Origin: a virus | Taxonomy: Duplodnaviria > Heunggongvirae > Uroviricota > Caudoviricetes | Length of the DNA stretch: 17,324 bases | IMG/VR virus record: IMGVR_UViG_2693429706_000005 | Strand: one strand, 5' to 3' | In this document: in pieces, positions 2,186 to 14,192 of the stretch | Position numbering within the stretch: the stretch's first letter is position 1 | Layout: each line of letters opens with the position of its first letter | The notes under the pieces: generated by a model | Told to the model about the DNA's origin: nothing | What the model saw: the letters and a program-made list of their open reading frames with translations, nothing else | Database searches by the model: none | Position numbers and translations under genes: made by a program

Positions 2186-2326
2186 TCATACTCCTGCTCC
2201 TGTCAGGGTTTTGGCGTAATTCTTCAGTATTCGGTAATCGGTCAAAACAGAACCGGGGAAACGATATAAGCGCAGACGCCCCCAGCGGTGGCGAAGACGT
2301 TCTGCCATATAAAACTCAAACATCAT
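2186..2326 (-). CDS. ylcG: YlcG-like small phage protein (46 aa)
   Basis: Minus-strand translation gives [46 protein letters not shown]; start ATG overlaps the rusA stop (ATGA); same position as ylcG after rusA in DLP12. Below the ORF-track size cutoff. Confidence 0.6.
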
Positions 2327-2685
2327 TCATTCCCCATTTCGGTGATGGTCAGTTCCAGCCTCCCACCTTTGGTAACAGGCATCTTCACAACGCGGTAATC
2401 AACGACCTGAGCATCATCCAGCCAGAAACCTGCTTTAGTGAGTGCGTCAAAAGCGGCTTTTTGCAGATTATCCAGGTCACGGCGACGGCGATCCGGCATG
2501 TGGCACTCAATGCGGATTTTCACAGGCATAGCCAGGCCGATATCCAGCATTGCGTTTTTAATGATTCGGGCGACGTTATCGCGGTATGCCTGCCCCTCTG
2601 CGCTGACGTGCGTGCGCCCGCGATTATGGCGGTAATAGCGATTATTGCTCGGAGGCCAGGGTAATGTGATGCTGTAGGTATTCAC
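2323..2685 (-). CDS. rusA: RusA Holliday-junction resolvase (120 aa)
   Basis: Protein [37 protein letters not shown]... recognised as E. coli/DLP12 RusA; sits in the nin region order. Confidence 0.9.
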
Positions 2686-2972
2686 GCCTTAATAACCCCC
2701 TCTTTCAGCCAGATAACCTGTGTTCTCGCCATACCTTCCAGCGCGCATTCTTTTGCATATGCAGCATCGACAAAATGTGTGCGGCGGTCGATTTCGTCGT
2801 GGCAGGCAGAACATGCAATGGTGGCAATCAGGTCTGGCGGTTTGGTACCGGTGCCGCACAATCCAGTCAGCCGGATATGTGCCAGTACAGACGTTTCAGG
2901 GTTGCCATTACATACGCCAGGGATTCTTACCTGGCATTCCCGACTACGCGCTGCTTTTCTCAAATCAGCCAT
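2682..2972 (-). CDS. ybcO: YbcO-like DUF1364 protein (putative nuclease, Cys-rich), 96 aa from internal ATG
   Basis: [42 protein letters not shown]... recalled as DLP12 YbcO; ATG at 2970-2972 is preceded by AGGAGG, while the longer track ORF (to 3011) has no such signal. Confidence 0.8.
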
Positions 2973-3135
2973 GATTCCTCCTTGCTGCCAGTCGCAACCA
3001 TTTTTTATCAACCAGGCTGGCGGTATATCCGAGCAGTGTTGGTATTTCGGAAGGCTTCAGCTCCGGTTTACGCTTACGACGATCTGGTACTCTGTAGATG
3101 TGTCCGTTCATGACACGAATAAGCGGTGTAGCCAT
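2965..3135 (-). CDS. ninE: NinE-like protein (56 aa)
   Basis: Minus-strand translation [56 protein letters not shown]; its ATG overlaps the ybcN stop; below the ORF-track size cutoff. Confidence 0.7.
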   Translation of the reverse strand: MATPLIRVMNGHIYRVPDRRKRKPELKPSEIPTLLGYTASLVDKKWLRLAARRNHG

Positions 3136-3590
3136 TACGCCTCCTGCTTGTCGCGGAGCAGCTGGAACTCGCAGCTCTGCGGAATAGTCAGGTGGCAGCC
3201 AATATTCACCGCCCAGGCTTCAACCTTACACAGGAAGACATACATCTCTCCGGTATCAAGATCGGAGGTATGGCGTAACGACTGGATAGTGGTGATATCA
3301 CCGGTTACGACATCAACCAGGTCTTTGGTTTCATAACCGAGATATGTGTGTTTGAGAGCATCTTTTACCCAAGCTGGAGTGGCGAACGTTTTACCCTTGC
3401 TGATGAGGTATTCACTGATTTCGCTGTACCACATGTGGCTGAGTGCATTCTGGGAAAGACTGCGTCTCTCGCGCCACGGTTTAAGCACCATGCGAAAGCA
3501 TTTGCCGTCCTCCAGATAAGGCTGGATCTGCCGACCGATAGCGGTGAAGTTACCGCGATGCAATTTGATACCATCTTGTGGGAGGTTCAC
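3135..3590 (-). CDS. ybcN: YbcN / NinB-family protein (151 aa)
   Basis: [55 protein letters not shown]... recalled as DLP12 YbcN; GTG start at 3588-3590 preceded by GGAGG. Confidence 0.85.
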
Positions 3591-3830
3591 GCTTCACCTC
3601 CGCAGAGGTCAAACGTTGGATGCAAGATATCGCAGGTGCATTTCTGCATCTGTGACTGGTTGAAAGGTGTTCTGATTGTCGTTTGCACTTTGAGTCCCCT
3701 CAAAGCGCAGAAGTCACCGGAGTTGTTCAGGCTCCGATGACATGATTATGGCGAGTTGATTATGATGAATCAATAGGTTCTTATGTCAAATGAACACTAG
3801 ATCCAAAGGAGGGTAACAATTATCATAGCC

Positions 3831-3848
3831 AATGAGATTAATCTCATT
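3831..3848. promoter_or_regulatory. Perfect 18-bp palindrome (candidate operator) just upstream of the 472-aa gene RBS
   Basis: aatgagattaatctcatt equals its own reverse complement; sits 7 nt upstream of the AAGGA ribosome-binding site (3855-3859) of the ORF starting at 3866. Confidence 0.4.
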
Positions 3849-3865
3849 TTTAATAAGGAAATTTC

Positions 3866-5284
3866 ATGAAATATTTCTCAACTGGTTTTTATGTTTCAAA
3901 CTCCACATCTCTAGCTGAGATCTTTAATGAATGTTTTTCTTGGGTAAACGACTCACCACATACAACTTTTATTCCAGCACAATTAGTATGTGATTATAAA
4001 AGCGAGGAGTACTTCATAGAGTCTAAAAATGAAAGAATTGATATAATAACTTATAAAAACAAAGATACTAGTTTAGGCTGTTTTAGGTATTCGAAAATAT
4101 CTGAGCCACACAAATGGGTAACAGATATTTCAATTAATAAAAATCTCAAAACTGATACCATGTGGATTCAGGTGGAATCTAGCGTTGTAAGCCAAGATGC
4201 AGCTTATCTAGCCCCGCAACCTAAGAAACCATTAGTTGTTATGAGATTGATTGATAAATTTTCTGGTGGTCTTGATGATATTTTCAAGGTGTCAGTCGAA
4301 CCTCATTCCTTAGATGATACTGATGAACATTTAAATATAGCAGCTAAAGTTATAAATGGTGAAACTGACAACAGACTACCAATAATATACGTTAGCTCCA
4401 AGTATTTTTTTAATGAACATGCTCACAATATCATCCCAGAACGCCTTGCAAGAAAGGTATGCGGATTAGCACATGTATTAATTGAGCCTAGCAATAGACT
4501 ATTTTCTATTAAGCTAAAAAATGAGACAAATGCTAAAAATGCCTATGCTGGTGCTGTTGGTATCTATTGGCCACGGGGTCAAAATATCAGTTTTTATCGC
4601 CGTGGTGAGAAAACCGCAAAAGAATTTGAAGATGAGTTATTTGATGATGTTGTAAGAGCTACGACTACAATGGCTCCTGTCTCAGATAGTGGATGGAGTG
4701 AGATACAAACCAGAAAAACGAAAGACTCTATTAACTCACTCAAAGAAAGAGGAGAATACACACGCGAACTGATGGCGCTTTACGAAGCCGATAATGTTGC
4801 GAAAGATGACCAAATAGAAGATCTTAAGCATAAGATCTCCTCTTTAGAGCACAGAGTACGCACTCTTCAATCACAAGCTTCAGCCCAAGGAAGCATTGTG
4901 CTTAATGCTGGTGAAGAGACTGATTTTTTTGATGGAGAAATCAAAAATATAATTATTGACGCACTAAAAACTGCCATAAAAAATAAAAATGAATTTGGTA
5001 GAAGCTACCATATCTTATCATCCCTAATTGCCAATAATGAATACAATAAAGAAACCGAGAGTCGCCGCCAATTACTTAAAAGGACTTTAACAGGTTACAG
5101 AAGCATGGATAGCGCAACACAAAGAAATTTAAAGGACTTAGGTTTCAGTGCGTCAAGCGATGGAAAACACTGGAAGTTAACATATAATGAAGACCCTCGA
5201 TATTCCTATATTTTACCTAAAACAGGAAGTGACCACAGAGGTTCTTTAAATGCTATCTCGGATATAGCAAACATTATTTTCTAA
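3866..5284 (+). CDS. Hypothetical 472-aa protein in an AT-rich island, family not recognised; candidate defence/moron gene
   Basis: Long uninterrupted ORF with AAGGA RBS 6 nt before the ATG; strongly AT-rich versus flanking phage genes; opposite strand to the surrounding early-right operon; central heptad-like stretch (…RELMALYEADNVAKDDQIEDLKHKISSLEHRVRTLQSQ…); no motif I can assign. Confidence 0.7.
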   Translation: MKYFSTGFYVSNSTSLAEIFNECFSWVNDSPHTTFIPAQLVCDYKSEEYFIESKNERIDIITYKNKDTSLGCFRYSKISEPHKWVTDISINKNLKTDTMWIQVESSVVSQDAAYLAPQPKKPLVVMRLIDKFSGGLDDIFKVSVEPHSLDDTDEHLNIAAKVINGETDNRLPIIYVSSKYFFNEHAHNIIPERLARKVCGLAHVLIEPSNRLFSIKLKNETNAKNAYAGAVGIYWPRGQNISFYRRGEKTAKEFEDELFDDVVRATTTMAPVSDSGWSEIQTRKTKDSINSLKERGEYTRELMALYEADNVAKDDQIEDLKHKISSLEHRVRTLQSQASAQGSIVLNAGEETDFFDGEIKNIIIDALKTAIKNKNEFGRSYHILSSLIANNEYNKETESRRQLLKRTLTGYRSMDSATQRNLKDLGFSASSDGKHWKLTYNEDPRYSYILPKTGSDHRGSLNAISDIANIIF

Positions 5285-5292
5285 TAAATTTC

Positions 5293-5318
5293 AATAGCAC
5301 TCACAAATGAGTGCTATT
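5293..5318. terminator. Bidirectional hairpin between the convergent 472-aa and 84-aa ORFs
   Basis: Perfect 11-bp inverted repeat aatagcactca (5293-5303) / tgagtgctatt (5308-5318) with loop caaa, 9 nt after the TAA of the 472-aa gene and 18 nt after the stop of the minus-strand ORF; flanks are AT-rich but lack a clean U-run. Confidence 0.55.
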
Positions 5319-5335
5319 GTTGCCACTGAATTACT

Positions 5336-5590
5336 CTATTTAAATTCAACTTTTATCCCTTTGTTTAGCAGGGCATCAGAAACTGCCTTTTTTGTAACAT
5401 TTATCCCTGCAAGCAATGCTTTATGCATTGGTCCCTTAAAAATTTCTACTTCTTCTTCAGTGAGTTTAGGCAATGTAATATAAATAACATCTTTCATCTG
5501 CTTGTTTTTATAGCATGAGCTTCTTGTGTGCTTACAATCGATATTTTCTTTATTTCCCAAAACATCATCCCCTTTATAATTCAGTTCCAC
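5336..5590 (-). CDS. Hypothetical small protein (up to 84 aa; true start uncertain), AT-rich
   Basis: ORF-track entry starts at a GTG with no RBS; internal ATGs at 5495-5497 and further downstream. C-terminal segment MHKALLAGINVTKKAVSDALLNKGI has a helix-turn-helix-like pattern. Lies downstream of ren in the same transcriptional direction. Confidence 0.35.
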   Translation of the reverse strand: MELNYKGDDVLGNKENIDCKHTRSSCYKNKQMKDVIYITLPKLTEEEVEIFKGPMHKALLAGINVTKKAVSDALLNKGIKVEFK

Positions 5591-5654
5591 ACATCAATTA
5601 TTTAGTTATCACGAATGTCGTAAAACTAAAATTAGTAACAATAATTGCTCATAC

Positions 5655-5942
5655 CTACTCTCTTCCATATAAAGCCAACACCCGCTTCATCGCGGCACTT
5701 TGACGACACTCCTTAAAAATCAGATTCGTGCTCACCTTTCCTTCCCGTTCTTCTCTGGTAGCGAACCGGTAATACACCGTTCGCCAGACCTTACCATCAA
5801 CGACCAGGATTCCTGACCGCGCCATTTTAGCCGCAGCCTGATTTATGCTGGTTACGGTTGCGCCTGTTACCGCGGCAACGTCCTGCGCACAGAAGTTCTT
5901 ATGAGTCCCCAGGTAATGAATAATTGCCTCTTTGCCCGTCAT
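5655..5942 (-). CDS. ren: Ren-like protein (95 aa)
   Basis: MTGKEAIIHYLGTHKNFCAQDVAAVTGATVTSINQAAAKMARSGILVVDGKVWRTVYYRFATREEREGK... recalled as close to lambda Ren; its start overlaps the P stop as in lambda. Confidence 0.8.
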   Translation of the reverse strand: MTGKEAIIHYLGTHKNFCAQDVAAVTGATVTSINQAAAKMARSGILVVDGKVWRTVYYRFATREEREGKVSTNLIFKECRQSAAMKRVLALYGRE

Positions 5943-6640
5943 ACACTTGCTCCTTTCAGCCCAAACTTCGCTTTGATTTCTGCGATCTTCGCCAGAGCCT
6001 GAACACGATTAAGCGGTCTCCCGCCCATGACAGGAAGTTGTTTTACTGGTTCAGGTATCGCCTCACCACGGTTAATTCGCGCTGTCATACAGGCCAGTTC
6101 ATCGGCAGCCTTGCGCCGTAATTCCGCATCAGTCAGCGCATTGGCCCGCATGTTCTGATACAGGTTGGTAACCAGCCAGTAGTGCGCGTTTGATTTCCAC
6201 GGATAAGACTCTGCATCTGGATACAGGCCACGTTTCCGGCAATACTCGTAAACCATATCAACCAGCTCGCTGGCGTTTGGCAGCCCGGCGGTAACGGATG
6301 CTTCTTCCCGGCACCAGGCAACAAACTGCCCGGGTGATGGCAGGAATGGTCGATTCTGCCGACGGGCTACGCGCATTCCTGCGTTAACCTGTTCCATCGT
6401 GGTGATCCCGTTTTCCCGGAAAGCCAGAACCCACTGGCGGCGGATTTCGTTCAGTTCGTTCTGGTCCCGGTTAGCCAGGCTCGCCGGGAAAGTTGCCAGT
6501 AACTGGCTGAACACACCATTGATGATCTGCGCTACCTGTTGTACCTGCGGCTTTTCGTCGTACTGTTCCGGCATGTTGTTGGCGATCCGGCGCATCTGCT
6601 CACGGTCAAAGTTAACCATCTGTGCGGCGATGTTTTTCAT
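5939..6640 (-). CDS. P: Replication protein P (233 aa, DnaB helicase loader)
   Basis: MKNIAAQMVNFDREQMRRIANNMPEQYDEKPQVQQVAQIING... recalled as near-identical to lambda P; start overlaps the O stop (ATGA). Confidence 0.93.
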   Translation of the reverse strand: MKNIAAQMVNFDREQMRRIANNMPEQYDEKPQVQQVAQIINGVFSQLLATFPASLANRDQNELNEIRRQWVLAFRENGITTMEQVNAGMRVARRQNRPFLPSPGQFVAWCREEASVTAGLPNASELVDMVYEYCRKRGLYPDAESYPWKSNAHYWLVTNLYQNMRANALTDAELRRKAADELACMTARINRGEAIPEPVKQLPVMGGRPLNRVQALAKIAEIKAKFGLKGASV

Positions 6641-7566
6641 AAATCCACCCCGTAAATCCAGTCAGTGTTTGTCAGGTCGAGTTTTGATTTTCCGGCTATC
6701 ACGCCAGCCTGTTGCTTGTTACGGTTGATTTCGAGTTGGGTCCACTTGTCGCGGAGTTTGGCCGGACTTAGCACGTTACCGGACCAGAAGTTGTCCTGGC
6801 ATGCCCAGCGGAACAGCACGCACATGTCGCGGTGGTTACGGCCGTCACGTTCACGCATCAGGCGGATATCGTTAGCCCACCCTGCAAAATTCGGTTTTCT
6901 GGCTGATGGCGCGATGGTCTTCACCATGTCAAACATCCACTCTGCGGCGGTCAGGTCTTCTGCTGTCCCCCACCTGCTGCCGCTCTGAATTGCAGCATCT
7001 GGTTTCTCCACAGGAAGATCGTTTTCTGGTTGGTCAGAGGATTCGCCAGAATTCTCGGACGAAAAAGGTTTTATATTGTCTTTTGTTAGTTTGTATTTTG
7101 TGTTTACCTGATTCGGGTAAGTGCCTTTACCTGATTTGGGTAAACTTTTCTTACCTGATTCAGGTAAATTTACCTCTTTCAGGTAAACTTTATTTTTCTT
7201 ACCTGATTCGGGTAATGTTGACCATTCACTGACCACATTATTAATGCCGATATTCCGCCCGCTCTGAATAAAAATCCCACGCTTTACCAGAACACTTTTT
7301 GCAGCAGAACACTTGTGCGGCAATATCCCGGTCAACTCGGAAAGTTGCTCGTTGCTCACCCAATCCAGTTTTTTATTAAAGCCATATGTTTTGCGCATGA
7401 CAGCCAGGAAGACCAGAAGCTGGTGCTGTGTTAATCCGGCCAGCATCACAGCTTCCAGCAACTCATTTGCAATGCGCGTATAACCATCATCGAGATCTGC
7501 CACGCGCGGCTCCTTTTGTGCCGCATCCGGCACTGGAAAATTGAATATCTCAGCAGTGTTTGCCAT
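6637..7566 (-). CDS. O: Replication initiator O (about 309 aa from the ATG at 7566)
   Basis: Translation from the ATG at 7564-7566 (preceded by GGGAGG) gives MANTAEIFNFPVPDAAQKEPRVADLDDGY..., resembling the lambda O N-terminus; C-terminal region lambda O-like; iterons lie inside the gene. The track ORF extends upstream to 7656 but that extension has no RBS. Confidence 0.85.
   Translation of the reverse strand: MANTAEIFNFPVPDAAQKEPRVADLDDGYTRIANELLEAVMLAGLTQHQLLVFLAVMRKTYGFNKKLDWVSNEQLSELTGILPHKCSAAKSVLVKRGIFIQSGRNIGINNVVSEWSTLPESGKKNKVYLKEVNLPESGKKSLPKSGKGTYPNQVNTKYKLTKDNIKPFSSENSGESSDQPENDLPVEKPDAAIQSGSRWGTAEDLTAAEWMFDMVKTIAPSARKPNFAGWANDIRLMRERDGRNHRDMCVLFRWACQDNFWSGNVLSPAKLRDKWTQLEINRNKQQAGVIAGKSKLDLTNTDWIYGVDL
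7105..7215. repeat. Origin iterons (five direct repeats of about 16 bp, consensus tacctgattcgggtaa) inside O
   Basis: Copies at 7105-7120, 7128-7143, 7152-7167, 7171-7186 and 7200-7215 with one to three substitutions each, flanked by AT-rich DNA; matches the ori-lambda arrangement of iterons within O. Confidence 0.85.
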
Positions 7567-7652
7567 AATTCCTCCCGCAATGAGTGTGTTACGATTTGCA
7601 CCTGAAAGTCGGTTCTGTTCCCGCAGACCGACTTTCGCCATTTCTGAACCTG

Positions 7653-8192
7653 TCATATTGCCCCCAGCATGGTGGTCACCATCGCCATTAATGGACCAGC
7701 CAGATCCGGGTCCACACGAAACATCGACACAATACCTTCACTCATTTCCTTCAGTTTCTGGTGGCGTGGTGCGTTGAGAATGACAGCCTGTTTTGCCTCA
7801 CTGAGTTCCTTTTCCATTTCAGCCAACCGAGTCATGAAGCTATCCTGCTCAACCAGGTAACCGCGATATTCCAGCGGTAGTACCGCCAGAATTGCCGGGG
7901 TCAGTTCACGCACGTTATTTCGGTATTTTTCAGAATCGAATTTGTTATCGAGGAAGCGGAACAGCTTCTGGCGTGCACGGCTGACATCATCAGGGAAATC
8001 GATGGTGCCGTCGCCCTGCTCCCGATACTCATTCACAATGAGTGCGGCAACGACATCCTGATTATCTACAGCCGACCAGGCGCGGACGGCATCACGGATT
8101 TTTTCGTGGCCTGGAGCTTGTTTTGTTTGAGAACGATTTATCACCGCAGTCGGAATAAATCCGCTAGTCTGTTGGTATGTAAGTGGTTGCAT
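7653..8192 (-). CDS. YdaT-like protein in the cII position (179 aa)
   Basis: Strong RBS AAGGAG 6 nt upstream of the ATG at 8190-8192; lies between the cro-like gene and O; segment ELTPAILAVLPLEYR resembles the conserved motif I recall in Rac YdaT. Family assignment is from memory. Confidence 0.5.
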   Translation of the reverse strand: MQPLTYQQTSGFIPTAVINRSQTKQAPGHEKIRDAVRAWSAVDNQDVVAALIVNEYREQGDGTIDFPDDVSRARQKLFRFLDNKFDSEKYRNNVRELTPAILAVLPLEYRGYLVEQDSFMTRLAEMEKELSEAKQAVILNAPRHQKLKEMSEGIVSMFRVDPDLAGPLMAMVTTMLGAI

Positions 8193-9515: not shown

Positions 9516-9896
9516 ATGAGAAAAATCCTAATCGCTGCCATGATGGCATCTGTATTGGCTGGGTGTGCTTCTTCAGGCAACCAGCAACTCAAAAATGAAA
9601 CTGAAATTAGTGTCCAGTCTAAACTTCAGGAAGGTAAAACAACCAAGAATGAGGTTAAATCTTACTTTGGTTCTCCTGATGCTGTTTCATATACTGACAG
9701 TGGAAACGAGATCTGGAAGTACGCCTTTGCAAAAGTAAAAGTTAATGGCACCACTTTTATTCCATTCTATGGATTATTCCATAATGGAACGAACGGTACG
9801 AAAAAAGAACTTACTATTCTTTTTAACGATGACACGATTAAGAAATACACAATGTCAGAAACCCAAATAAACTCGAAATCAGGTTGGGCTGACTGA
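9516..9896 (+). CDS. Predicted outer-membrane lipoprotein (126 aa), possibly SmpA/OmlA (BamE-like) fold, in the rex position
   Basis: Signal peptide MRKILIAAMMASVLAGC with lipobox LAGC and Ala at +2; pattern T..EV..YFGSPD…EIWKY.F resembles the BamE/SmpA-OmlA motif; AT-rich; consensus -10 TATAAT at 9495-9500; terminator follows. Confidence 0.7.
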   Translation: MRKILIAAMMASVLAGCASSGNQQLKNETEISVQSKLQEGKTTKNEVKSYFGSPDAVSYTDSGNEIWKYAFAKVKVNGTTFIPFYGLFHNGTNGTKKELTILFNDDTIKKYTMSETQINSKSGWAD

Positions 9897-13589: not shown

Positions 13590-14192
13590 TCATTCAGTAT
13601 CATCACGCGCGGTCTGTGCATATGTCACTACCGCACCTAATATATTAATTTTCTTTTCAACATAGATAATATTATCGTACTCATAATTGCCATACGGATA
13701 GCAAATGCGAATATTCTCATGTAGATCGGGGTCATCCACCTCAGCTCCAGAACAACTTTTTGAACTACCGGAAGTATACCGATACGGTGCAACGTAAGAC
13801 GATGTCTCTCCAGGCAAAAAATAAGTTAGTGTCGTAAGGGGTATAATCAGAAAAAATCCAGCAAATATGCACATCCCTGCATAAACCTTAAGGTATGCTG
13901 ACAGACTCTTCCAGCCGCTTTGTTTTACTATCCCCTTCTTAACCCAAAACAGAGATAACAGAAAAGCTATTCCCATGCTAAACAGAATGTAATAGTGGGA
14001 TATACTCTGATTAAGAAACGTGACCCTGTAGATATCTGCCCGCCACCAGAAGAAAAGGAAAATAAAGATCAGCCCTGAAACTGTCATGCAAATCAAATAA
14101 GGATACGAATCTTTTTTCATGTTTAGCGCCCATAAAATTTTTCCTGACCCGGACAAATTTACCATCCATTTTTTGCGCAGAAAATAGCTCAT
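13590..14192 (-). CDS. Hypothetical polytopic membrane protein (up to 200 aa; start uncertain), AT-rich island
   Basis: At least three strongly hydrophobic segments (LICMTVSGLIFIFLFFWW, YYILFSMGIAFLLSLFWV, VYAGMCIFAGFFLIIPLTTLTYFL) followed by a soluble C-terminal region of about 70 aa rich in Tyr, Ser and Cys; opposite strand to the surrounding early-left operon. Confidence 0.55.
   Translation of the reverse strand: MSYFLRKKWMVNLSGSGKILWALNMKKDSYPYLICMTVSGLIFIFLFFWWRADIYRVTFLNQSISHYYILFSMGIAFLLSLFWVKKGIVKQSGWKSLSAYLKVYAGMCIFAGFFLIIPLTTLTYFLPGETSSYVAPYRYTSGSSKSCSGAEVDDPDLHENIRICYPYGNYEYDNIIYVEKKINILGAVVTYAQTARDDTE

Follow-up and report, generated by a model that had tools for sequence, protein, structure and literature searches.

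What does a gene of foreign composition do when it sits, read against its surroundings, between two early genes of a lambdoid prophage? The question is raised by IMG/VR virus record IMGVR_UViG_2693429706_000005 (Duplodnaviria; Heunggongvirae; Uroviricota; Caudoviricetes), a stretch of 17,324 nucleotides (nt) that is referred to below, at its full length, as the window, and that is a lambdoid prophage adjoining ybhC. Between ninB (ybcN) and ren it carries an AT-rich island with an open reading frame (ORF) for a protein of 472 amino acids (aa), hereafter the 472-aa protein, which the original prediction had been unable to match to any family and had put forward as a novel candidate for anti-phage defence or abortive infection. 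Two parts of that interpretation stand, namely that the gene is cargo in a variable slot and that an anti-phage or abortive-infection role is the best-supported reading; the third, an unmatched and novel protein, does not, as models of the defence candidate HEC-07 match 41 of 41 aligned homologues and the C-terminal 57 residues are HicA-like. Current models dedicated to defence genes do recognise the 472-aa protein, which is a variant of a defence candidate already described, and PADLOC would probably flag it as HEC-07-like. We consider it probable that it forms a single-polypeptide anti-phage system of the abortive-infection type, built on a HEC-07-like scaffold with a swapped ribonuclease (RNase) effector.

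Homology to HEC-07

HEC-07 is one of the nine Hma-embedded candidates described by Payne et al. and belongs to the seven that reduced plaquing in E. coli (bioRxiv 10.1101/2024.01.29.577857). Its authors describe an N-terminal AdoMetDC-like domain that is followed by a thioredoxin-like domain devoid of CxxC and, at the C-terminus, by an RNase domain of the RelE family (HP0892 type) with a conserved histidine (H543); the protein tested was WP_033943166.1 of P. aeruginosa NCTC13717, and the corresponding PADLOC models are PDLC04158-04161 (bioRxiv 10.1101/2024.01.29.577857).

Model PDLC04161 matches the 472-aa protein at E 1e-9 (35.8 bits), with residues 83-334 placed on positions 107-366 of the 553 in the profile; the match is partial, covering 47% of the model and leaving its last 187 positions (367-553) unaligned. 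A HEC-07 match is obtained with every one of the 41 aligned homologues (best E 1.9e-14), 15 of which also match PDLC04159. When the family alignment is compared by hhalign with the tested HEC-07 protein, represented by its first 399 of 549 residues as given in the paper's supplementary table, residues 82-322 align to 102-352 over 228 columns (probability 95.4%, E 1.8e-8), and BLASTP between the two single proteins gives E 2e-4. The motifs W-I/V-T-D/E, G-x-AHV and ELxxLYExDN are common to both families. Judged by these alignments, the homology is real but distant, at 19-25% identity, and it stops before the C-terminal third.

The second domain of the 472-aa protein is thioredoxin-like and, as reported for HEC-07, the protein contains no CxxC motif, so this domain cannot be a conventional oxidoreductase. 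A RelE-type C-terminal domain was not found in the 472-aa protein, nor was there a RelE structure among its structural neighbours, the sole chain of the RelE/ParE superfamily in the Foldseek list being a ParD2:ParE2 complex at rank 15 (probability 0.07). H435 is conserved as the histidine of HEC-07 is, but within a different fold.

A HicA-like C-terminal domain

Modelled alone by AlphaFold2 (AF2), residues 345-472 give a predicted local distance difference test score (pLDDT) of 91 and a predicted template modelling score of 0.76. The helix 416-425 is both the last of a helical bundle and the first of a terminal alpha-beta-beta-beta-alpha domain, and for this domain six independent lines, each weak to moderate on its own, point to HicA. 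In a Foldseek search against 350,542 PDB chains, the top four hits are all HicA (probability 0.91, 0.82, 0.75 and 0.66), and the next stands at 0.13. An hhalign comparison with aligned HicA sequences of the E. coli type (probability 80%, E 1.3e-5) places H435, on the second strand of the domain, exactly on H23, which we take to be the catalytic residue of E. coli HicA, and the strand around this histidine reads G-x-x-H-x-K-L in both. In a member-by-member search of Pfam, HicA_toxin is the one entry that recurs, with matches in 3 of 25 (best E 0.022), and the PADLOC 'HicA-like' model is matched by 6 of 41 members (best E 2.6e-5). Among PHROGs, the C-terminus of the 472-aa protein matches phrog_2053 (E 1.9e-9) and phrog_2089 (4.7e-4), as well as a 'toxin' family (0.016). 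With bona fide HicA proteins the match is to phrog_353 ('toxin') and, more weakly, to phrog_2053 (0.01) and phrog_2089 (0.0013), so that these last two bridge the C-terminus and HicA.

Conservation within the protein is highest in the HicA-like domain (mean column identity 0.58), where K437, D443, R445, D456, R458 and N462, polar residues near H435, are each at least 90% conserved. Pfam HicA (PF07927) itself gives no match to the 472-aa protein or to its C-terminus even at E <= 10; as the protein stays below every curated HicA threshold, the domain is called HicA-like here and not a member of PF07927. Its expected role would be that of an RNase effector. No gene for a HicB antitoxin was present among the called neighbours in eight contexts, and no neighbour of any kind is conserved at ~110 loci.

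Predicted organisation of the remaining protein

The AF2 model of the full-length protein (pLDDT 84) agrees with the original division into an N-terminal region, a central coiled coil and a C-terminal part of about 130 aa; the coordinates of the domains are given in Table 1. The first domain is predicted to have a Bet v1/START-like fold and may serve as a sensor or ligand-binding module. In the thioredoxin-like domain, the second most conserved part of the protein, D137 and P172 are 100% conserved, G229 99%, E207 98%, G200 and H203 97% and A202 94%. Residues 300-337 form a single helix in the model (nt 4763-4876), where a coiled-coil-like stretch had been expected at about 4750-4870, and a profile of the full-length protein retrieved only coiled-coil proteins among solved structures. 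After a low-confidence linker (residues 338-343), the conserved bundle of residues 345-415 packs with the C-terminal domain in the model, an arrangement that would suit a cis-inhibitory or regulatory module.

Size, spread and conservation of the family

The 472-aa protein belongs to a family that is real, old, constrained and of fixed architecture. A word-indexed search retrieved 75 homologous clusters, all of ~470 aa, without a Pfam domain and named 'hypothetical', with identities to the 472-aa protein of 62-81% in Enterobacterales, ~40% in Pseudomonas and ~25-34% in Caulobacter and beyond. An exhaustive profile search of 1.84 billion representatives extended this to 3,466 clusters (counted at 50% identity) at E <= 1e-3, of which 1,039 reach E <= 1e-30; nearly all of the best 150 clusters are 460-480 aa long and align end to end. 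According to genome scans, at least 131 species carry the gene, among them members of the Planctomycetota, Acidobacteriota, Verrucomicrobiota and Gemmatimonadota, and relatives are encoded on 32 IMG/VR viral contigs. Among 146 representatives, with a median identity of 28% to the 472-aa protein, 35 positions are at least 90% conserved, and D137, P172, E358, R379 and H435 are invariant in all 146.

General-purpose models see little of this. Pfam yields coiled-coil noise only (residues 281-342) on the whole protein and nothing on the isolated N-terminal half or the C-terminal 63 residues; PHROGs give no match to the whole protein; and the one NCBIfam match, to flexirubin DarG over residues 279-333 in the coiled-coil stretch, is far below its cutoff (E 0.056, 13.6 bits versus 170).

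Genomic contexts of the family

The neighbourhoods, read from called genes with precomputed Pfam matches, place the gene mainly on mobile elements. In enterobacteria it comes last, next to a P4-type integrase, in a small element that also encodes a DUF927-primase-like protein and is found at two chromosomal sites; in Lelliottia and Pseudomonas it lies at the end of P2/HP1-like prophages, past the tail-fibre genes, and in a further Pseudomonas prophage it adjoins the integrase. In Dickeya it sits inside an integrative and conjugative element (ICE), next to an IS110 transposase and in the same region as an Mrr_cat gene. A further context is an island where it is accompanied by genes of the SLFN_AlbA_2/HATPase_c_4, radical-SAM and transglutaminase types; upstream, this island differs from contig to contig. 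Clustering of neighbours at the ~110 loci revealed no gene common across the family, and the 472-aa gene is therefore regarded as a self-contained unit. Five kinds of mobile element carry it as cargo that stands alone, lies on the opposite strand or is terminal, a pattern typical of genes for defence or competition between elements, though as evidence it is circumstantial.

In Pseudomonas, the gene travels with a two-gene pair (L123-L127 at ~6114-7839; L139 at 5094-6813 and L140 at 384-2103) that encodes a HipA_C kinase-like protein of 326-327 aa and a protein of 234-249 aa with a weak HIRAN match. The trio, which is limited to Pseudomonas, occurs in two prophage settings, the tail end of P2-like prophages and the integrase end; the two genes may work on their own, as a toxin or defence pair, or may partner the large gene functionally in this clade.

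The island and its slot

Direct computation gives 34.6% GC for the island (3784-5663) versus 51.4% (2200-3700) and 54.2% (5700-7000) in the flanks, and the composition profile shows a trough of 31-39% over ~3700-5700 with ~50-55% on either side. GC content at third codon positions is 27% in the 472-aa ORF and 29% in a second ORF of the island, of 84 aa; in ren, P, O and ninB it is 51-60%. Homology to related prophages, to DLP12 of K-12 and to lambda stops at 3761-3779 and restarts at 5664. The AT-rich stretch of the original prediction is confirmed, and its limits (3740-5650) are true to a few tens of bases. Neither direct repeats nor insertion scars were found at the edges, and an Rfam search of the island returned no family of non-coding RNA. 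The longest open frame, of 475 codons, is far beyond chance, since in 500 shuffles the longest frame averaged 81 codons and never exceeded 146. As O, P, ren and ninB/ybcN all lie on the minus strand, the 472-aa ORF, on the plus strand, opposes the early-right operon, again as predicted. The 84-aa ORF is RefSeq-annotated and had not been mentioned before.

The ribosome-binding site (RBS) and the 5' palindrome that had been ascribed to the gene are both there (Table 1). The palindrome is a candidate operator or hairpin of the 5' untranslated region: its half-sites, AATGAGA and TCTCATT, are kept upstream of the gene in Siccibacter (L005) and, with one change, in Pantoea (L006), with a different 4-nt centre. 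Nucleotide similarity to the Siccibacter cassette starts exactly at the palindrome (3831) and ends at the stop codon, which suggests that the palindrome lies within the gene's own control region. The promoter-like site upstream remains a candidate, as the scan returned 15 such sites versus 7.7 expected, a usual excess for AT-rich DNA.

Table 1. Positions in the window of the island, its genes and signals, the predicted domains of the 472-aa protein and the flanking prophage genes.
Feature	Position	Strand	Description and basis
ninB/ybcN, left backbone flank	3135..3590	-	Pfam NinB E 2e-4; annotated YbcN
Sigma-70 promoter-like site ATGACA-18-TATGAT	3737..3766	+	10/12 consensus matches; ~100 nt upstream of ORF
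AT-rich cargo island	3764..5663	none	Composition and homology breakpoints; between ninB/ybcN and ren
Perfect 18-bp palindrome AATGAGATTAATCTCATT (half-sites around TTAA)	3831..3848	+	Read from sequence; just upstream of RBS
Shine-Dalgarno-like AAGGA	3855..3859	+	Read from sequence; 6 nt before ATG
472-aa gene	3866..5284	+	ORF list, ATG start; product identical to RefSeq WP_042028685.1, 'hypothetical protein'
Residues 1-135	3866..4270	+	Beta-alpha-alpha-beta5-alpha domain, Bet v1/START (SRPBCC)-like fold; Bet v1/START/Ups1 helix-grip
Residues 140-250	4283..4615	+	Thioredoxin-fold domain without CxxC motif
Residues 251-337	4616..4876	+	Three long helices, last coiled-coil-like (AF2); ELxxLYExDN start common to HEC-07
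Residues 345-415	4898..5110	+	Acidic motif (E351 92%, E358 100%), then helical bundle (R379 100%, first helix 358-371)
Residues 416-472	5111..5281	+	HicA-like alpha-beta-beta-beta-alpha domain of double-stranded RNA-binding domain (dsRBD) type; H435 codon 5168-5170
Hairpin, perfect 12-bp stem	5292..5319	none	Between convergent genes; putative terminator-like on - strand
84-aa ORF	5336..5590	-	RefSeq-annotated; 32.9% GC; convergent with 472-aa gene, co-oriented with early-right operon
ren, right backbone flank	5655..5942	-	Annotation; homology back at 5664
P	5939-6640	-	ORF list, annotation
O	6637-7656	-	ORF list, annotation

The view of the island as horizontally acquired cargo in a variable slot is well borne out. 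Among 5,426 complete E. coli genomes, the ren and ninB flanks occur in 3,611 and the full insert in 24, where it is 96-100% conserved, so that the island is plainly not backbone in all related prophages; at the nucleotide level it is present in 0 of 50,697 deposited phage genomes. In the best-matching genomes, the ybhC-site prophages are ~98% identical and differ precisely at this slot. In JS01 it holds the island with the 472-aa gene, in MFDS1016424 a DUF4041 protein (also on the opposite strand) and two further genes, in MSI001 a gene annotated TagO, in several further genomes ybcK, and in DLP12 of K-12 emrE, ylcJ, ybcK, ybcL, ybcM and ylcH; in lambda, which had correctly been said to have nothing there, it is empty, with 73 nt from ren to NinB. 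The DUF4041 protein (L145, 3834-5336) has 500 aa and is accompanied by a protein with a P22AR C-terminal domain, and the MSI001 product (L146, 2509-3003), of 164 aa, is annotated 'T6SS-associated TagO'. In strain EFF60, the island is 100% identical in a prophage at another att site (argU/intD). It therefore passes from one lambdoid phage to another, the presumed route being recombination within the flanks, which are conserved.

Proposed mode of action and points that weigh against it

The working unit of the mobile cassette would be the 472-aa gene together with its own upstream palindrome and RBS. In the proposed scheme, the N-terminal half, with its Bet v1/START-like and redox-inactive thioredoxin-like domains, would act as an infection sensor or regulatory scaffold, and the coiled coil could serve in oligomerisation or signal transmission. 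Before infection, the HicA-like domain would be masked, probably by the conserved helices that adjoin it; infection would release the domain, and RNA cleavage through H435 would halt translation and, with it, phage growth. It is nevertheless important to stress that RNase activity, autoinhibition, sensing, expression in the lysogen and a defence phenotype are all parts that we infer.

Several observations speak against this scheme. A profile of the C-terminal domain, when compared with solved structures, retrieved nothing meaningful and no HicA. The HEC-07 match leaves out the effector and roughly half of either protein, the fold obtained here for the N-terminal domain is Bet v1/START-like where the authors of HEC-07 describe an AdoMetDC-like one, and HEC-07 itself is known from preprint plaque assays only, its mechanism not being established. 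A literature search on accession WP_042028685.1 gave nothing, and no experiment on the protein or a close relative was found. AT-rich foreign genes are commonly silenced in E. coli, and expression in the lysogen is therefore not assured. Finally, some distant homologues, in Caulobacter and in a verrucomicrobial metagenome-assembled genome, lie in ordinary-looking chromosomal settings.

Alternative explanations

The foremost alternative, itself unlikely, is a fused toxin-antitoxin (addiction) module in which the HicA-like toxin is neutralised in cis and the gene stabilises its mobile element. Such a module would fit the HicA-like domain with its conserved histidine, the single-gene architecture without HicB partner and the constant presence of the gene on or beside mobile elements, and Gerdes lists fused HicA proteins without an assigned role (bioRxiv 10.1101/2023.12.08.570793). 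However, it is not obvious how one stable polypeptide would cause post-segregational killing, phage protection was obtained with the homologous scaffold of HEC-07, and an N-terminus with two sizeable, conserved domains resembles a sensor more than a simple cis-antitoxin. Addiction and defence are, moreover, not mutually exclusive roles.

The C-terminal domain might instead be a non-nuclease module of the dsRBD type that binds RNA or another nucleic acid, with the protein acting as a regulator, or as a sensor with a separate, unlinked effector. As the HicA fold is itself a dsRBD fold, the low structural scores and the failure to reach any HicA model threshold can be read in this way, and the conserved palindrome upstream might indicate autoregulation. 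What makes this rather improbable is that the residue placed on the catalytic histidine of HicA is invariant among the 146 representatives and stands amid polar residues that are at least 90% conserved, that no partner gene is conserved across the family, and that the PADLOC 'HicA-like' model and a PHROG 'toxin' family are among the sequence matches.

A benefit to the carrier phage in its own lytic or lysogenic cycle, be it host takeover, anti-defence or a non-abortive control of superinfection, is suggested by the location in the nin region beside ren, an exclusion-related gene, and by the relatives on 32 viral contigs. It is nevertheless very unlikely: the gene is transcribed against the early-right operon, it occurs also in an ICE, in satellite-like elements and in chromosomal islands, all without a phage lytic programme, none of the deposited phage genomes carries the insert, and the carrier here is a truncated prophage without Q, lysis and structural genes. 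A decaying or silent insert without current function, which the silencing of AT-rich DNA and the remnant state of the prophage in the window would favour, is scarcely tenable in view of an intact frame of 472 codons versus a shuffle maximum of 146, the 96-100% conservation in 24 genomes, a family length that stays at about 465-475 aa over 3,466 clusters, and the 35 positions conserved at a median identity of 28%.

The 84-aa ORF

The 84-aa ORF has no match in Pfam, PADLOC, PHROGs or NCBIfam, and a search of 5.8 billion proteins found near-identical relatives only, without distant homologues; the label 'phospholipase D-like domain-containing protein' that it bears in one RefSeq genome is accordingly treated as spurious. 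Its C-terminal 48 aa are 44-47% identical in ORFs of the same position and orientation in Siccibacter colletis (L005) and on a viral contig (L097), two other lambdoid loci that carry a gene of the 472-aa family directly after P. Where a gene of the family sits in non-lambdoid elements, this ORF is absent, and it is thus regarded as a lambdoid-specific companion and not as a required partner.

A bolder version of the anti-phage reading, which we hold to be a long shot, would see the whole family as a widespread and so far overlooked class of one-protein immune sensors, in which a Bet v1/START-type pocket domain and a catalytically dead thioredoxin domain detect a phage ligand or protein and release a divergent HicA RNase, and to which the lambdoid cassette may add a gene for self-protection. 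Owing to its early-right orientation, the 84-aa ORF would be made only during lytic growth of the carrier; either its product would neutralise the effector or antisense read-through transcription would silence it, and the prophage would avoid aborting itself.

Other features of the window

The left end of the window is occupied by asnB, which is complete (1-1665; Asn_synthase E 8e-94), and by a tRNA-Met (2052-2110) that is truncated, covering positions 8-63 of the Rfam tRNA model, and that ARAGORN does not call as a tRNA. At ~2108-2117 these are joined directly to the middle of the nin region of the prophage, on the ylcG side, which leaves the prophage without Q, lysis and structural genes. 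The junction exists in 0 of 5,426 complete E. coli genomes; in these, a long distance separates asnB/tRNA-Met from the ybhC-site prophage. The junction reflects either a genuine rearrangement or a chimeric assembly.

Three further genes are worth recording. The first (7653-8192, minus strand), which lies between the O-like replication gene and a cro-like regulator, has a product with a YdaT_toxin domain (E 4e-30); this identifies the immunity region as of the YdaS/YdaT (Rac/CP-933-like) and not of the lambda cII type. The second (9516-9896, plus strand; 38-40% GC), just downstream of the cI-like repressor in the position of lambda's rexAB, encodes 126 aa with a weak, sub-threshold BamE-domain match (E 1.6e-4) and a RefSeq annotation as BamE; probably this is a moron for a lipoprotein, co-expressed with the repressor. 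The third (13590-14192, minus strand; 37-40% GC) is a second AT-rich, opposite-strand ORF, of 200 aa, between a TraR/DksA-like gene and xis/int; it is 'hypothetical' in RefSeq in related prophages, has no Pfam match and may be another moron in the b-region.

Significance

What is new here is the exchange of a RelE-like for a HicA-like effector, the size and breadth of the clade, its habit of residing on prophages, satellites and ICEs, and the ren-ninB junction as a cargo hot spot. If the anti-phage reading is true, the HEC-07 scaffold would be a reusable sensor platform that can be combined with RelE-like or HicA-like RNase toxins, effector swapping being a hallmark of bacterial immune systems. 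A function would then be available for at least ~3,500 clusters now called 'hypothetical' in Proteobacteria, Planctomycetota, Acidobacteriota, Verrucomicrobiota and others, HicA would acquire a context beyond those of the published HicA-domain survey, and the lambdoid ren-ninB junction would join the better-known P2 and P4 hot spots for defence cargo. The gene is short, stands alone, comes from E. coli and offers H435 as an obvious target, which makes it a cheap and good object for experiments.

Comparison with known systems

Within its slot, the 472-aa gene shares the identical insertion point and a moron-like behaviour with emrE, ybcK, ybcL and ybcM of DLP12 and with the DUF4041 and 'TagO' cargo, and the DUF4041 gene is, like it, opposite to the operon; the proteins themselves, however, are unrelated to the 472-aa protein.

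With HicA toxins (PF07927; E. coli HicA, PDB 6HPB), the C-terminal domain has in common the alpha-beta-beta-beta-alpha fold and the histidine aligned on H23. HicA toxins are free proteins of ~60 aa, whereas here the domain is part of a protein of 472 aa. Fused HicA proteins have been surveyed by Gerdes, who argued on contextual grounds for a role as defence effectors (bioRxiv 10.1101/2023.12.08.570793). Class 13 of that survey (340-440 aa, a helical N-terminus plus a C-terminal HicA) and class 14 (SMC-HicA) come closest, and the 472-aa gene shares with the fused HicA genes a monocistronic organisation and a C-terminal HicA behind a large N-terminal region containing a coiled coil. No class has a Bet v1/START-like plus thioredoxin-like N-terminus (bioRxiv 10.1101/2023.12.08.570793), and the survey probably did not sample the present family because its HicA domain is too divergent for Pfam.

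A precedent for a fused sensor-toxin is CapRelSJ46, a fused toxin-antitoxin that senses a phage capsid protein (bioRxiv 10.1101/2023.12.08.570793). As a working analogy only, a sensor part would in both cases restrain a translation-targeting toxin until a phage product binds; the toxin of CapRelSJ46, however, is a RelA/SpoT-type tRNA pyrophosphokinase, the domain order is the reverse, and no sequence or fold relationship between the two proteins was found.

The closest relative remains HEC-07. The two differ in size (472 versus 549 aa), with 19-25% identity over about half of the protein, in setting, HEC-07 being Hma-embedded and the present family cargo of prophages, satellites or ICEs, and in the effector, which is HicA-like in the 472-aa protein and, by its authors' description, RelE-like in HEC-07. 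Both are single large proteins in which the end of the N-domain, the CxxC-free thioredoxin-like domain and the first helices with ELxxLYExDN are homologous, and both follow the same logic, in which non-enzymatic N-terminal domains are connected by a helical linker to a small C-terminal domain of the RNase-toxin type with a conserved histidine.

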